Source of the DNA: Bacteroidota bacterium
Lineage (GTDB): Bacteria > Bacteroidota > Bacteroidia > AKYH767-A > OLB10
Length of the DNA stretch: 64,000 nucleotides
Direction of reading: 5' to 3'
Assembly: GCA_031366005.1 (NCBI GenBank)
Contig: JANLZB010000038.1
Coordinates: 41,208 to 105,207 of the forward strand
The position numbers were made by a program, and so were the translations under genes. The notes beneath the pieces were generated by a model. The model had not been told where the DNA came from and searched no databases. It saw only the letters and a list, made by a program, of their open reading frames with translations. The first letter of the stretch is position 1. Each line of letters begins with the position of its first letter. This document shows, piece by piece, positions 37,346 to 44,905 of this stretch.

Positions 37346-37580
37346 CCGATTATTGAATTTGTTTTATCTGGCTACTTCAGGATGTTTAATAAGTTTGTGT
37401 TCTATAAAACAAACTTTCATCTATTCAATGAGTTAGTGTTTACATTATCATACGTGATAACATCAATGAAAAACATTCGTATAATTGCAGCAACAGTACT
37501 CACCACACTTCCCATAGGAACAGTGTCCCAGGGTGAGTCTTCTGCTTTTATACCTATCTGTAAACATTTTATTTTATAGT

Positions 37581-38489
37581 ATGAAGTATAACAAACCTCC
37601 CATAGCAATACCTCAGCAAATTGAACAGTTAAAACGCAGAGGCCTTGTTATTTCAGATGAGCAGGTTGCATCTCATTTTTTACAAAATGTAAGTTACTAT
37701 CGTTTGGCAGGTTACTGGTGGCCCATGCAGTTGGATAAAACATTGCACACTTTTAAGCCTAACAGCACTTTTGAAAATGTAATAGCCATTTACAATTTTG
37801 ATCGTGAATTACGAATCCTTCTTTTTGATGTGATAGAACGAATCGAAATTGCTTTCCGCACTAAATTAATTTATCACCTGTCGCGTGAAATTTCACCATG
37901 GTGGTTTGAATACGCTGGTCATTTCAAAAACGCAGTAGAACATACCGAAACATTATTAGCAATTGACAGAGAACTCAAACAGACCAAAGAGGTTTTTATA
38001 AAACAACATTATATTAAATACCATACCGATACACGCAGACCTCCAGCCTGGAAAACACTTGAGATAGCCAGCTTTGGTAATCTTTCAAAACTTTATGGCA
38101 ATCTGCTGCCGTCCATTAAATCAAAAGATTTGATTGCAAAGGATTTTGGAACTGTTAATCACACCTTTTTACCAAGCTGGTTGCAAAGCATTACACAGAT
38201 AAGAAACATTTGCGCGCACCATGGAAGACTATGGAATAAGAATTTGCCGGGGAGACCTAAACTCCTTCCTAAACCTCCGAATGTGTGGATTGCTAATGTG
38301 CCTGCGGTTACAGAGCACCATCTGTTGTATGTGCATTTGTGTTGCATGAAATACCTGATGAATGTGGTAAATCCCAACAGTCATTTTACACAAATGTTAA
38401 TGTCTATGATGATGAAGTACCCAAACATTGATCCTAATGCTTTGGGCATAAAACCTGATTGGCAAAACGAACCACTTTGGGAAATATAA
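37581..38489 (+). CDS. abortive-infection phage-resistance protein, Abi_2 (AbiD/AbiF) family
   Basis: The start was taken at the internal MKYNKPP. The motifs KPPIAIPQQIEQLKRRGLVISDE...NVSYYRLAGYW, ...FDRELRILLFDVIERIEIAFRT and QIRNICAHHGRLWNKNLP are the hallmark Abi_2 motifs. Confidence 0.85.
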   Translation: MKYNKPPIAIPQQIEQLKRRGLVISDEQVASHFLQNVSYYRLAGYWWPMQLDKTLHTFKPNSTFENVIAIYNFDRELRILLFDVIERIEIAFRTKLIYHLSREISPWWFEYAGHFKNAVEHTETLLAIDRELKQTKEVFIKQHYIKYHTDTRRPPAWKTLEIASFGNLSKLYGNLLPSIKSKDLIAKDFGTVNHTFLPSWLQSITQIRNICAHHGRLWNKNLPGRPKLLPKPPNVWIANVPAVTEHHLLYVHLCCMKYLMNVVNPNSHFTQMLMSMMMKYPNIDPNALGIKPDWQNEPLWEI

Positions 38490-41994: not shown

Positions 41995-42070
41995 AGTTAA
42001 ATGTGATAATGAAAATAGCTAATAATTTTTACGAAGGATTTTGTGAATCGTTACAGTACTCAAAAGTAAC

Positions 42071-42140
42071 CGTCATGTTGAACTTGTTTCAGCATCTGTA
42101 CAAATAAATAGAGAGATGCTGAAACAAGTCCAGCATGACG
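42071..42140. repeat. hairpin repeat element, copy 1 (27-bp arms CGTCATGTTGAACTTGTTTCAGCATCT / AGATGCTGAAACAAGTCCAGCATGACG, 16-nt loop)
   Basis: Read directly. It lies in the divergent region between pyc and the 42234 gene. It is about 85-90% identical to copy 2 at 43483..43542, loop tail ATAGAG included. Confidence 0.8.
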
Positions 42141-42233
42141 ACATCCGGACGAAATATGCGCACAGAATTATTGTTTATTTTTCACCAAAATCTTAAAACT
42201 CCAAAATTAATTCAAACATAAAAAAACGCTTCT

Positions 42234-43469
42234 ATGAAAAAAAATATTTTACTTTTAATCACAATCACTACTCTGGCAAACAACATAAATGCACAATGGC
42301 AGACTACCAATGGACCATCTCCGGGTGCAACAGTTACCACTATGGCTGTTAACAGCACCAATCTATTTGCAAATGTGTATGATGGTGTTCATGCCTATTC
42401 AAATACTGCATGGAGTTATCCTGCAAACAGTGGATTTTTAATGGGTAGCAATATCAATGCTTTATTTGTGAGTGATTACAATTTATTTGCAGCGTTTCAA
42501 TTGGATGGTGGTGTGTTTATTTCTCCTGACAGCGGAGCAAGTTGGTTGCCTGCTTACAATGGTTTGCCAACTGATTTAGTTGGTCAGTTATATGCAGTTC
42601 ATGCGTTAAATTCTTCGGACATCACCTATCCGCTTTTTGCAGGAACAGAAAAAGGTGTGTATAGCACAACTAATAATGGCAGCTCGTGGACACCAGCAGG
42701 ATTATTGACAAGTGATATTCGTTGTTTAGCAAATCATGGCAATGAAGTTTTTGCAGGTACTTACAATAGTGGAGTGTATTACTCAAATAATAATGGAACA
42801 AGTTGGACAGCTATCAACAACGGTTTAACGGATACAACCATTCTATCATTGCTGTATGCAGGAATTGATACGTTGTTTGCCGGAACTATTTACGGTGTTT
42901 TTAGAACCACTGATAACGGAGCAAACTGGACAAACATCAGCACCGGTTTACCCACAAGTTTTACAGCTGAAGTAGTTGCTTTAGTAAAATATGGAAACAC
43001 CATTATTGCAGGAAGCAGAAATGGTGGAGTGTTTATCAATACAATGAACGGAAATAGTTGGACAGTAAACAATGCAGGATTTACTGCAGGAGGAGTTTAT
43101 TCATTAGCAATTAAAGGCACAAACGTGTATGCAGGCATCGGACAAGGAGGAGTGTGGACACGAGGATTAAGTGAGCTCACTACAGTGAATGAATTAGCTG
43201 ATGAAAATAATCAGGTCACGATTTTTCCAAATCCTGTAAAGGATGTTTGCACAATTGTGCTCAACAACAATTTAACAATGCAACAATTTAGCAATGCAAC
43301 TTTAAATCTTAATGATATTACAGGGCGAACAGTGCTACAACAAACTTTTAATTCTGATGATAAAATTGATTTAAGTATTTTGACACAAGGAGTTTATTTG
43401 TTAGAGTTAAAAGATATCCCCACTCAATCGGGAGGGCGAAGTTTAAAAGGGAAAGTTGTGAAGCAATAA
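42234..43469 (+). CDS. secreted BNR/Ycf48-like repeat protein with a C-terminal T9SS sorting domain
   Basis: 411 aa with a signal peptide. Repeats are SPDSGASW, TTNNGSSWT, SNNNGTSWT, TTDNGANWT and NTMNGNSWT. The CTD reads IFPNPVKDVCTIVLNNN...GVYLLELKD. Confidence 0.7.
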   Translation: MKKNILLLITITTLANNINAQWQTTNGPSPGATVTTMAVNSTNLFANVYDGVHAYSNTAWSYPANSGFLMGSNINALFVSDYNLFAAFQLDGGVFISPDSGASWLPAYNGLPTDLVGQLYAVHALNSSDITYPLFAGTEKGVYSTTNNGSSWTPAGLLTSDIRCLANHGNEVFAGTYNSGVYYSNNNGTSWTAINNGLTDTTILSLLYAGIDTLFAGTIYGVFRTTDNGANWTNISTGLPTSFTAEVVALVKYGNTIIAGSRNGGVFINTMNGNSWTVNNAGFTAGGVYSLAIKGTNVYAGIGQGGVWTRGLSELTTVNELADENNQVTIFPNPVKDVCTIVLNNNLTMQQFSNATLNLNDITGRTVLQQTFNSDDKIDLSILTQGVYLLELKDIPTQSGGRSLKGKVVKQ

Positions 43470-43482
43470 GGAATAAGTAATA

Positions 43483-43542
43483 CTGAACTTGTTTCAGCAT
43501 CTATTGCAATAGAGAGATGCTGAAACAAGTTCAGCATGACGG
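43483..43542. repeat. hairpin repeat element, copy 2 (CTGAACTTGTTTCAGCATCT - ATTGCAATAGAG - AGATGCTGAAACAAGTTCAGCATGACGG)
   Basis: Read directly. It sits immediately downstream of the 42234..43469 gene in the same orientation as copy 1, so the two copies flank that gene. Confidence 0.8.
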
Positions 43543-43588
43543 AATGTGTATAAATACTATTGTTTAATTTTTCAGCAAAATTGATTGG

Positions 43589-44905
43589 ATGTTTGCACGA
43601 ATAAAGAATTATTTATATAAACCCATTCCTTCCACGCAATTAGGATTGTTCAGAATTCTATTTGGTTTGTGTTTGGTGTATGAACTGTTTTATTATTTCA
43701 GTATTGATTTACTGGATAAAGGTTTGCGTGCTCCTGCAATGCGTTTTACTTACGAAGGATTAGAATGGGTTCAATTACTTCCCGGCAAAACAATGGAGGT
43801 AATGTTGTTTGTTTTGCTGTTATCCGCTGTTTGTATCACCGTGGGAATTTTTTACCGTACAGCAACGATTCTGTTTTTCACAGGATTCTCCTACATATTT
43901 TTTATTGATAAAAGTTTGTACAATAATCATCTTTATCTTTTCATACTACTTTGTTTTTTATTGATTGTGACTAAAGCAGATGCCGCAGTATCACTTAATA
44001 AAAAAAGTCTATCAACAACACTTCCTCAATGGCACCTGTTAATTTTTAAGATACAGATTTTTATAGTTTATTTCTATGGCGGAATAGCAAAGCTAAACAC
44101 GGATTGGCTTTTACATCATCAACCGATGCATGCAATGTTACAGATGAATGGATTCAATTCATCGTTAGTGGAAAATTTCCTGGTTTATGGCGGACTGATA
44201 TTTGATTTAAGTATCGGCTTCTTATTGTGGTTTAAGCGCACTCGCATTATTGGAATCATTGGTGTTGTGTTTTTCAATATCAGCAATGCAATTATTTTTA
44301 ATGATATAGGGGTGTTTCCGTTCTTTATGATAATGGCAACCATTTTATTTTTTGAGCCAGACGTTATTCATCAACTTATTTCAAAAAAACAAGCCACAAA
44401 AAAGAAAGATTCAAAACAAAAATTGCAACCGGTTGCATTTACACCTTATAACAGGGTAAATATTTTTCTTGCCGTTTATTTGTCATTTCAATTATTATTT
44501 CCTTTCAGGTATTTATTATTTCCAGGTAATGCTGAATGGTATGGAGTGGGCCAGCGTTTTTCTTGGCGAATGAAAATTCAACATCGTGATTATACGGAAA
44601 TGAAATTTACTGTGGTTGATTATACCAATAAGCGCTTAATGGATTTAGATCCGGCAGAATATCTGACATACGCACAAATGCAAACGCTTATTCTTGATCC
44701 AAAAATGATTTATCAGATGGCAACGTTTCTTGGTAATGATGCCAGGAAAAAAGGAATCTCCGGTGCAGGTGTTCGTGCAGCTGTAAAAGTTAAATTTAAC
44801 GGAAGGAGTGAACAATACATTGTAAATCCTGAAACAGACTTGATGAAAATAAAATACAATCCATTTGATTTGAGAAACTGGGTGCTGCCATTGAAAAATC
44901 CTTAA
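43589..44905 (+). CDS. HTTM-domain membrane protein (vitamin K-dependent gamma-carboxylase-like)
   Basis: 438 aa. The N-terminus LGLFRILFGLCLVYELFYYF and the multi-TM layout match the HTTM domain. Confidence 0.6.
   Translation: MFARIKNYLYKPIPSTQLGLFRILFGLCLVYELFYYFSIDLLDKGLRAPAMRFTYEGLEWVQLLPGKTMEVMLFVLLLSAVCITVGIFYRTATILFFTGFSYIFFIDKSLYNNHLYLFILLCFLLIVTKADAAVSLNKKSLSTTLPQWHLLIFKIQIFIVYFYGGIAKLNTDWLLHHQPMHAMLQMNGFNSSLVENFLVYGGLIFDLSIGFLLWFKRTRIIGIIGVVFFNISNAIIFNDIGVFPFFMIMATILFFEPDVIHQLISKKQATKKKDSKQKLQPVAFTPYNRVNIFLAVYLSFQLLFPFRYLLFPGNAEWYGVGQRFSWRMKIQHRDYTEMKFTVVDYTNKRLMDLDPAEYLTYAQMQTLILDPKMIYQMATFLGNDARKKGISGAGVRAAVKVKFNGRSEQYIVNPETDLMKIKYNPFDLRNWVLPLKNP

Follow-up and report, generated by a model that had tools for sequence, protein, structure and literature searches.

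Within the 64-kb stretch of Bacteroidota DNA analysed here (the window), two near-identical imperfect palindromes, at 42071–42140 and 43476–43541, were located by sequence inspection and with a repeat finder on either side of a 411-aa T9SS ORF. The hairpins enclose exactly this one ORF, with pyc divergent to the left and HTTM to the right. This arrangement raises the question of whether the palindromes delimit a gene cassette or are copies of a repeat that reached the two intergenic spacers without the gene, and a preliminary description had left both readings standing.

Copy 1 has 27-nt arms (42071–42097 and 42114–42140; 93% complementary) around a 16-nt loop, GTACAAATAAATAGAG, while copy 2 has 26-nt arms (43477–43502 and 43515–43540; 92% complementary) around a 12-nt loop, ATTGCAATAGAG. 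As had been described, the two loops share the ending ATAGAG, and the repeat finder aligns the right arms of the two copies at 97% identity over 34 nt. Copy 2 had been placed from 43483, but it begins at about 43476, its outer left end having decayed to AGTAATA in place of CGTCATG. When up to three mismatches are allowed, the 27-mer arm matches only these four arms in the 64 kb (0 expected from 100 shuffles), in agreement with the original observation of near-identical hairpins bracketing the gene. Folding of both copies as RNA, which had been suggested as a check, yields long hairpins (−41.3 kcal/mol for copy 1 and −33 kcal/mol for copy 2; z = −10 and −8), and both also form long hairpins as DNA (−24.3 and −22 kcal/mol). 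Each arm forms a small palindrome of its own, ATGCTGAA-CTTGT-TTCAGCAT, which makes every hairpin an inverted dimer built from a 28-nt unit. The earlier reading of the hairpins as direct repeats in the same orientation consequently holds for the spacer and not for the arms. A hairpin scan and a covariance model (R1) recovered four REP units in two dimers in the 64-kb window, and none besides. These units and their surroundings are as follows.

42071–42098, + strand: REP unit 1 of the upstream dimer (R1 42.6 bits, E = 1.2e-9; hairpin scan; sequence), with tag CGTC at 42071–42074, stem ATGTTGAA, loop CTTGT, stem TTCAGCAT (one G-T pair) and tail CTG.
42099–42112, no strand: spacer of the upstream head-to-head dimer, whose right end, AATAGAG, is common to the downstream dimer.
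42113–42140, − strand: REP unit 2 of the upstream dimer (R1 41.1 bits, E = 3.1e-9; hairpin scan), CGTC-ATGCTGGA-CTTGT-TTCAGCAT-CTC, with the tag pointing outward.
42166–42191, + strand: promoter-proximal 26-nt motif AATTATTGTTTATTTTTCACCAAAAT (context, outside the REP), also found in L085 and L088 upstream of the gene, where both are hairpin-less (alignments A1 and A2).
42234–43469, + strand: flanked gene (context, outside the element), whose 411-aa secreted product carries a C-terminal T9SS sorting domain.
43476–43503, + strand: REP unit 3 of the downstream dimer (R1 24.6 bits, E = 1.5e-4), with an intact core, a decayed tag and outer stem (AGTAATACTGAA...) and 3 mismatches to the consensus arm.
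43504–43513, no strand: spacer of the downstream dimer.
43514–43541, − strand: REP unit 4 of the downstream dimer (CGTCATGCTGAACTTGTTTCAGCATCTC; R1 46.6 bits, E = 8.7e-11), the best-preserved unit.
43556–43581, + strand: second copy of the 26-nt motif, ACTATTGTTTAATTTTTCAGCAAAAT, upstream of HTTM (context), conserved in L078, L079, L081, L084, L085, L088 and L089.

The encoded 411-aa protein has a Pfam Por_Secre_tail match above cutoff and a sub-threshold match to Sortilin-Vps10 (28.9 bits against a cutoff of 33). The direct repeat runs about 45 nt beyond the hairpins (42166–42191 against 43556–43581), but because the 26-nt motif is also found in relatives without a hairpin, it lies outside the repeat element. 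A direct repeat of about 110 nt, combining hairpin and motif, was considered as a gene-inserting duplication and rejected, as the motif precedes the gene in hairpin-less relatives. Comparison of the window with 4227 Rfam models gave no match at the gathering score, the best sub-threshold match being AaHKsRNA41 (45.7 bits, where the gathering score is 97); matches at the level of E-values, to AaHKsRNA41 and plant miRNA precursors, were rejected because they fall below the gathering score and reflect a generic long stem. A search of literature full text for the core sequence found no paper.

In the unit, a CGTC tag precedes an 8-bp stem that begins with AT; the stem encloses the loop CTTGT and is followed directly by a C. 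Tagged REPs include a family termed CGTC-2 (Di Nocera, De Gregorio & Rocco 2013, BMC Genomics 14:522, PMC3733652); the hallmarks of CGTC REPs are a CGTC or TGTC tag, an 8-bp stem starting AT, a 5-nt loop and a 3-nt tail, and head-to-head dimers with outside tags predominate among them (PMC3733652). In the window, the CGTC tag is carried by three of the four units, the fourth having decayed, and the CGTC-2 stem of 8 bp, with A/T pairs at positions 1 and 2 and a 5-nt loop, is present (ATGCTGAA-CTTGT-TTCAGCAT). The head-to-head arrangement is seen in both window copies and at 19/19 named-genome loci. The tails of the window units (CTG, CTC, CTA and CTC) keep the C but otherwise deviate from the CGTC-2 consensus CCA, which is found in GC-rich copies of the unit. 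Among the published CGTC-2 units is one within a Sulfurovum gene that is translated as RHSELVSGS (PMC3733652), and this peptide back-translates to a CTGAA-CTTGT-TTCAG core, as in the window unit (RHAELVSAS). The suggestion of a REP-type element is thus borne out, both by the defining features of CGTC-tagged REPs that were tested and by the occurrence of the element across phyla.

Conservation within the unit extends to its unpaired flanks. Among 290 units (68 distinct) ascertained by the 15-nt core only, G2, T3, C4 and C26 are conserved at 96%, 98%, 97% and 98%, respectively. Stem positions 5–7 and 23–25 covary (ATG/CAT, ACC/GGT, ATC/GAT and ATT/AAT), with full complementarity in 46 of the 67 N-free distinct units versus 14 in shuffles; the units counted had been selected by their loop or core only, since a set chosen for both pairing and GTC is partly circular.

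These flanking positions point to a nuclease. The GIY-YIG nuclease SsnA recognises the Neisseria repeat NTS/dRS3, CGTCATTCCCGCGMAVGCGGGAATCYRG (Chenal et al. 2025, Nat Commun 16:2388, PMC11893778); it binds and cuts NTS as single-stranded DNA only and is inactive on RNA. The C that follows the palindrome matters most for binding, the 3 nt that precede it for cleavage, and copies of the motif flank ssnA genes across phyla (PMC11893778). The window unit likewise has GTC before the palindrome and C directly after it, the features of a 'Ssn-related motif' (SRM), a class founded on NTS/dRS3. Matches to R1 adjoin small GIY-YIG genes in Spirosoma, Novosphingobium, N. gonorrhoeae and Planktothrix, and at 30 Ssn-like loci on viral contigs 53/57 R1 matches lie no more than about 350 nt from the gene. 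A DNA-only pattern of two inverted unit cores, CTGAACTTGTTTCAG-N335-365-CTGAAACAAGTTCAG, retrieved at least 120 metagenome loci, 112 of which encode an Ssn-like GIY-YIG ORF between the cores; as these loci were selected by spacing, the resulting 93% means that such pairs enclose ssn and not that most units lie near ssn. The ORFs between the cores carry the GIY-YIG domain PF01541, and the L210 protein is 50% identical to an NTS-flanked gonococcal ORF. On the low-GC metagenome contigs L210 and L133 the flanking units are of the window subtype, and copies identical to the 28-mer of unit 4 are among the units beside Ssn-like genes in the metagenome loci. Identical units therefore form the two outward-tagged ends of an element of about 400 bp that encodes a small Ssn-like GIY-YIG nuclease. 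Within the 64-kb window itself, an HMM search found no Ssn-like ORF. Among the first 89 loci, a regex search for GIY-YIG ORFs gave nothing real and an HMM search found one, in L054; two scans of viral contigs for the unit-gap-unit pattern gave no matches.

The published SRM pattern, HGTCWYN(0-2)YYVSBRHN(0-5)WNVSBRGN(0-2)RNCYNB, matches neither the window units nor their CCCTGAA variant, but it does match NTS and a GC-rich sibling of the unit, CGTCACCCCGGACTTGATCCGGGGTCCC. The AT-rich subtype fails because the pattern needs G or C where the window unit has A. Having been derived from 29 genomes, the pattern serves as a search aid and does not define the motif functionally, and one allowing A/T at the stem positions, e.g. 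YGTCAYNCYGRAYTYRKTYCRGNRTC, would admit the AT-rich subtype.

Dimers identical to those of the window occur in Bacteroidota, Alphaproteobacteria and Gammaproteobacteria, mostly singly and in short intergenic spacers. At 16/19 named-genome loci the dimer is alone within 8 kb, and genes are not bracketed. Two dimers are found within the 64 kb examined of the source genome, while the Bacteroidales MAG PL25a_bin.72 contains at least 8 exact dimers. A blastn search of plasmids with the dimer returned 3 records only, from Treponema and Novosphingobium.

We conclude, with a probability of roughly 0.8, that each window hairpin is made up of two 28-nt CGTC-tagged REP units of the CGTC-2 type, joined head to head with their tags facing outward, that this type is the SRM class, and that the dimers are gene-less counterparts of the SRM-ssn-SRM element that were inserted separately. 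As non-autonomous counterparts, the dimers would keep the termini of that element, with a spacer of 12–16 nt replacing the gene, and they probably entered the two intergenic spacers in separate events and then decayed at unequal rates. In single-stranded DNA, during replication, repair or transformation, each arm could fold into its own small hairpin. By analogy with Neisseria, the folded arm could be bound and nicked by a cognate Ssn nuclease with its gene elsewhere in the genome; the nuclease would contact the GTC ahead of the stem and the C behind it, as measured for SsnA.

More tentatively, and in our judgement somewhat doubtfully, a GIY-YIG Ssn could still be moving the dimers in trans as MITE-like derivatives of SRM-ssn-SRM devoid of the gene, which would amount to single-stranded DNA transposition without HUH or DDE enzymes, moving between phyla. 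Trans-mobilisation is consistent with the turnover of the locus within about 10–30% protein divergence, with the presence of two different subtypes in one upstream spacer of the two closest relatives, and with the spacer end that the window dimers have in common and that is not found in orthologous dimers. If it does take place, the window dimers would be traces of recent targeted insertion. The likeness of the ssn element to an insertion sequence has already been raised by Chenal et al. (PMC11893778), and only the demonstration would be new.

The orthologous locus in relatives bears directly on the alternative of cassette boundaries, by which the 411-aa gene would be mobile between the hairpins through attC-like or direct-repeat recombination and would have arrived, or been exchanged, along with them. 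This reading accounts for the single gene between direct repeats and for one relative (L079/L080) in which pyc is directly beside HTTM, with gene and hairpin both missing. Orthologues with 69–85% identity are, however, located between pyc and HTTM in several relatives, where hairpins are found on neither side (L088), on the downstream side only (L085–87 and L089), or as a different subtype upstream (L084). The presence of the gene without flanking hairpins in L088 settles the comparison of pyc-gene-HTTM with pyc-HTTM synteny, proposed earlier as a check, against the cassette, by the refuting criterion of the preliminary description itself. The divergence of the gene tracks that of HTTM (72–90%) and pyc, and L079 is not an outgroup, which indicates that the gene is old at the locus and was probably lost in L079. 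Since hairpin presence varies among relatives that carry the gene, gain and loss of hairpins are independent of it; filled-versus-empty alignments are too divergent in the intergenic DNA to define insertion boundaries or target duplications, and dimer mobility is accordingly read from presence and absence only. The gene has the GC content of its neighbours, with no compositional anomaly, the dimer occurs singly in unrelated phyla, and the unit is a conserved 28-mer with neither an integrase nor attC-type variable sequence. The cassette reading is thus hardly credible, and with it falls the idea that the gene was acquired or exchanged as a unit. The dimers are not gene-cassette boundaries, and any transcriptional effect on the flanked genes would be secondary.

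Such an effect is the substance of another reading, in which the downstream copy terminates or attenuates transcription or protects the mRNA 3′ end, while the upstream copy modulates the divergent pyc and 411-aa gene promoters. The very stable RNA folds speak for it, as does the position of the downstream dimer about 7 nt past the stop codon (stop ending at 43469, first unit from 43476), and dimers elsewhere are mainly between tandem or convergent genes, as is the case for REPs generally (PMC3733652). Neither hairpin is followed by a T/U tract on the + strand, however, and a search for intrinsic terminators (hairpin plus T tract) found no + strand site at either dimer, the only matches being to arm hairpins on the − strand. 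The elements are missing or decayed at these sites in close relatives, which argues against a conserved regulatory need, and because the upstream copy is absent from most relatives, any regulatory role it has is not conserved. The positions that are conserved, the unpaired GTC of the tag and the C that follows the stem, are, moreover, contacts of a single-stranded DNA nuclease that is inactive on RNA. We consider a primary role at the RNA level unlikely; as a side effect or later co-option, it would be compatible with the dimers being gene-less SRM-ssn-SRM counterparts. It is very improbable that the dimers are REPINs in the strict sense, i.e., REP doublets replicated by a RAYT, an IS200/IS605-type Y1 HUH transposase. 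The inverted doublet that forms a hairpin is the architecture of a REPIN, but the tag is CGTC and not GTAG, Di Nocera et al. did not find a tyrosine transposase flanked by CGTC repeats (PMC3733652), and the enclosed gene at 112 of the 120 metagenome loci described above is a GIY-YIG nuclease, with no Y1 transposase seen.

Read as gene-less CGTC-2/SRM dimers, the window hairpins belong to a repeat family known since 2013, whose likely protein partner was identified in 2025. If an Ssn is present in this organism, genes flanked by the motif would be cut sites of incoming or replicating single-stranded DNA, as in Neisseria, where NTS repeats cluster around particular genes; the flanking of one gene here could likewise be non-random. 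The AT-rich CTGAA-CTTGT-TTCAG subtype is common in Bacteroidota and missed by the SRM pattern, and this phylum is probably undercounted in surveys of Ssn motifs. At the pyc-gene-HTTM locus, filled, decayed and empty sites form a natural series that could serve to date REP turnover. Logan contigs encoding the window proteins are short and end in the hairpins. Dimers break short-read assemblies right at the hairpin, as in several of these contigs, which leaves loci such as pyc-gene-HTTM fragmented.

Among known systems, integron attC sites share with the window an imperfect palindrome after a single promoterless-looking gene and repeats on both sides, but here there is no integrase and no array, sequence is conserved and not structure alone, and the gene is found at its locus without hairpins. 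REPIN-RAYT systems of Pseudomonas and Enterobacteria and the BIMEs of E. coli are closer, with short palindromes in inverted pairs that form long hairpins scattered between genes and, for REPIN-RAYT, a presumed enzyme gene flanked by the same units; they differ in the GTAG tag and Y1 HUH transposase, in place of CGTC and a GIY-YIG nuclease. In addition, REPINs are lineage-specific and vertically inherited, whereas the window unit is identical across phyla. The CGTC-2 REPs of Di Nocera et al. (2013) agree in the unpaired CGTC/TGTC tag, the 8-bp stem beginning A-T, T-A, the 5-nt loop and 3-nt tail, the intergenic head-to-head dimers with outside tags in Bacteroidetes and Alphaproteobacteria, and the core implied by the listed Sulfurovum unit; the tail is CTN in the window and CCA in GC-rich hosts, and no associated enzyme was found for them in that study (PMC3733652). 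That enzyme is suggested by the comparison with Neisseria NTS and the SRMs. The window unit differs from NTS in its 5-nt loop (CTTGT, against 4 nt), and from published SRMs in an AT-rich stem outside the SRM pattern and in the lack of an ssn gene in the 64-kb window. It has CGTC, an AT-started 8-bp stem, loop, stem and C in the same order as NTS, its identical copies flank Ssn-like GIY-YIG genes with tags outward, as in NTS-Ssn, and the conserved GTC and C of its family coincide with the cleavage and binding determinants of SsnA measured in Neisseria.

A pair of long hairpins flanks a 411-aa gene between pyc (pyruvate carboxylase) and HTTM, as the preliminary description had claimed from the sequence, and both arm searches and folding confirm the pair.

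Features of the locus in the window
42071-42097 and 42114-42140: arms of hairpin 1 (upstream), 27 nt, 93% complementary, 16-nt loop
42234-43469: flanked ORF, 411 aa; T9SS C-terminal sorting domain; Sortilin-Vps10 match below threshold
43477-43502 and 43515-43540: arms of hairpin 2 (downstream), 26 nt, 92% complementary, 12-nt loop
Neighbours of the ORF: pyruvate carboxylase to the left, divergent; HTTM/vitamin-K-carboxylase-like gene to the right

Across the 64 kb, the 27-nt arm (allowing up to 3 mismatches) matched the four hairpin arms only, with 0 matches in 100 shuffles, and both copies form long hairpins as RNA or DNA (z-scores −8 to −10). A covariance model of the 28-nt repeat unit (R1) recovered exactly four units in the window, which are the two dimers. 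No Rfam family reached threshold for these hairpins. AaHKsRNA41 (RF02901) matched below threshold at 42012-42208 and 43387-43593 (30-46 bits vs. a gathering score of 97); the repeat unit is similar to the consensus hairpin of this family, GCUGAgCUUGcCGAAGCAUcu, and the Aggregatibacter ‘sRNA’ may likewise be a repeat of the REP-dimer type. Directly downstream of pyc, at 37533-38489, is an Abi_2 (abortive-infection-like) gene (Pfam E=1.8e-55).

Each hairpin arm is a palindrome of its own, ATGCTGAA-CTTGT-TTCAGCAT, with CGTC before it and C-T-N after it. In viral contigs the 19-mer TGCTGAAACAAGTTCAGCA has 55 matches, where well under 1 is expected, and its contexts reveal the same 28-nt unit in GC-rich and AT-rich DNA. 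These units are often paired, in inverted orientation, with units of another stem type (CCCTGAA/TTCAGGG, TTCCGAA/TTCGGAA, or CCCCGGA/TCCGGGG), so that the small per-arm hairpin, and not the long hairpin, is what is conserved. Among 25 stems unlike the searched one, from units chosen by tag and loop only, 12 are perfectly paired and 13 appear random-like. An earlier count of double-sided changes at 7 of 8 stem pairs is partly circular, because its units were selected for pairing and the GTC tag. We therefore rely on 290 units (68 distinct) ascertained solely by the 15-nt core, with unselected flanks, in which G2 (96%), T3 (98%), C4 (97%), A5 (97%), T25 (93%), and C26 (98%) are conserved. Stem positions 5-7 covary with 23-25 in four main types and are fully complementary in 46 of the 67 N-free distinct units, vs. 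14 in shuffles.

This anatomy agrees with one of the two described REP superfamilies, which are GTAG- or CGTC-tagged (Di Nocera, De Gregorio and Rocco 2013, PMC3733652). CGTC repeats have 8-9 bp stems that nearly always begin with complementary A/T residues, a loop of 4-5 nt, and a 3-nt tail, mostly CCA; the majority are ‘HH’ (head-to-head) dimers with tags outside, their hosts span five phyla, Bacteroidetes among them, and an associated transposase was not found in that survey (PMC3733652). Family CGTC-2 is defined by an 8-bp stem and a 5-nt loop, and among the intragenic units in its supplementary list is one from Sulfurovum with the translation RHSELVSGS (PMC3733652), which would back-translate to the CTGAA-CTTGT-TTCAG core of the window; the window unit translates as RHAELVSAS. 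On these sequence features (stem, loop, and listed Sulfurovum unit) the window elements are HH homodimers of CGTC-2 REPs, and the REP-type reading offered in the preliminary description is thus borne out. A REPIN-RAYT identity was rejected, as the tag is CGTC and the enclosed gene GIY-YIG, i.e., the wrong tag and the wrong enzyme.

The same description had also proposed that the hairpins behave like cassette boundaries and that the gene may have been acquired or exchanged as a unit. Contigs of relatives were reached through homologues of HTTM and the 411-aa protein, and the intergenic DNA was aligned and scanned with R1.

The pyc-gene-HTTM locus in relatives
L084/L078 (one organism; HTTM 90% identical): gene present (82%); upstream, long hairpin, but of another subtype (GTCATGCTGAGGAATGAAGCATCT...); downstream, dimer with decayed left arm
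L085-87: gene present (85% identical), split 360 + 41 aa; upstream, none; downstream, intact dimer with different spacer
L088: gene present (81% identical); upstream, none; downstream, none
L089: gene present (69% identical); upstream, none; downstream, decayed dimer
L079/L080 (HTTM 81% identical): gene absent, pyc adjoining HTTM; upstream, none; downstream, none

This series indicates that hairpins are gained and lost independently of the gene. The cassette reading is contradicted by the gene without hairpins in L088 and with one dimer only in L085-87 and L089, the outcome that the description itself had named as refuting it. The pyc-HTTM spacer of the gene-less relative is 112 bp (L079 3811-3922, L080 620-731). 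Since HTTM and pyc identities are star-like across relatives and L079 is not an outgroup, the gene is old at the locus, and its absence from L079 probably reflects loss there and not a failure ever to gain it; its GC content equals that of its neighbours. The orthologue at L085 3480-4687 (also L086 and L087), called as 360 + 41 aa, has lost its T9SS tail and may carry a frameshift or stop, which would make it a pseudogene there. In the closest relative of the window, the upstream spacer holds a second hairpin subtype, GTCAT-NNN-GAGGAAYGA-NNN-ATC (L084 1040-1112), which also forms the dimer beside a Spirosoma oryzicola GIY-YIG gene (L090 2339-2418); Bacteroidota thus harbour several motif subfamilies side by side, and one and the same site can be taken by different ones. 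Logan short-read contigs from several samples (L056, L057, L077, L078, L086, and L087) terminate inside or at hairpins, so the dimers fragment assemblies of the locus. A small addition of this analysis is the locus series itself, in which filled, decayed, and empty sites can be compared cleanly.

Past the hairpins lies a direct repeat of about 26 nt (42166-42191 and 43556-43581; A[AC]TATTGTTTA(A)TTTTTCA[CG]CAAAAT), which precedes the 411-aa gene and HTTM at a distance of 40-70 nt in each case. Relatives keep it ahead of the two genes irrespective of hairpins, and it is therefore a promoter-proximal motif outside the repeat. The two genes may share it as a promoter or operator, and the gene deletion in L079 could plausibly have used the pair as its substrate.

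An exact-dimer search (18 + 16 specified bases, 8-30 nt spacer) of species-representative genomes, a set outside which the source genome of the window falls, returned 19 loci. Hosts include Bacteroidota (several MAGs, Lutibacter, and one Bacteroidales MAG with 8 loci) and Proteobacteria (Sphingomonas jinjuensis, a Sphingomonadales MAG, two Alphaproteobacteria MAGs, and a Competibacteraceae (Gammaproteobacteria) MAG). The dimers are mostly solitary, with a second site in only 3 of the 19 8-kb loci, and do not systematically bracket single genes in this set. They sit in short spacers, 8 between tandem, 4 between convergent, and 2 between divergent gene pairs, with 4 left unclassified, and one is intra-ORF.

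The neisserial repeat dRS3, Di Nocera's CGTC-1, has been re-described as the 28-nt NTS, CGTCATTCCCGCGMAVGCGGGAATCYRG, which SsnA, a small single-domain GIY-YIG protein, binds and cuts solely as single-stranded DNA in one orientation (Chenal et al. 2025, PMC11893778). Binding depends mostly on the C directly after the palindrome and cleavage on the three nucleotides before it; motif-flanked ssnA genes (NTS-ssnA-NTS) occur across phyla, and the SsnA system lowers transformation by NTS-containing DNA (PMC11893778). A tblastn query, a consensus of small GIY-YIG proteins, retrieved real genes, among them a gonococcal NTS-flanked ORF and genes in Spirosoma (Bacteroidota), Novosphingobium, and Planktothrix; R1 matched directly beside all four of these. 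At 30 further Ssn-like loci in viral contigs, 53 of 57 R1 matches fall within ~350 nt of the gene. Loci L116 (loop CTTGT) and L119 (loop CTTGA) have GC-rich CGTC-2 units on both sides, tags outward. A DNA-only pattern, in which 335-365 nt separate an inverted pair of CTGAA-CTTGT-TTCAG cores, found at least 120 metagenome loci; among the matches listed, 112 of 120 enclose an Ssn-like ORF within the pair (E-values as low as 4e-42). These ORFs carry PF01541, and their flanking units include CGTCATGCTGAACTTGTTTCAGCATCTC, identical to window 43514-43541. The window subtype also accompanies Ssn-like ORFs in low-GC contigs (29-41% GC; e.g., L210 and L133), and the protein encoded on L210 shares 50% identity with the gonococcal NTS-flanked ORF. 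On a Planktothrix agardhii plasmid (L093 2243-2971), the Ssn-like gene has an MmeI-type restriction-modification gene on one side and DISARM drmA on the other, and is itself flanked on either side by short arrays of tagged hairpin units. Downstream of the Spirosoma gene, a truncated palindrome, TTTTGTCATCCTTCCTGTCGTCAGGATGACAAAA (L090 2815-2845), retains outer dimer ends only and may be a deletion footprint.

No ssn gene was found in the 64-kb window. An HH dimer has the termini of the ssn element, its tags pointing outward and its tails inward, and 12-40 nt where the gene would be, and on the basis of these shared termini and short spacer we infer that the window dimers are gene-less counterparts of a motif-ssn-motif element. 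The hairpins may also act at the RNA level, as a terminator or stabiliser, as a side effect; against this, no T tract follows them on the coding strand, the hairpin sites show no conservation, and the bases that are conserved within the unit are unpaired ones that would, by analogy with NTS, serve in DNA recognition. The repeat family, dimer organisation, cross-phylum spread, and GIY-YIG partner are already published, and the window copies are new members. The published degenerate search sequence for the Ssn-related motif (SRM; Chenal et al.) matches GC-rich siblings of the window units but not the AT-rich units at 42071-42098, 42113-42140, and 43514-43541, and surveys using it would therefore undercount low-GC hosts, a second small addition of this analysis. 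Compared with the neisserial NTS, the window unit shares its layout, and the GTC and C26 conserved in units ascertained by the core only coincide in position with the cleavage and binding determinants of SsnA.
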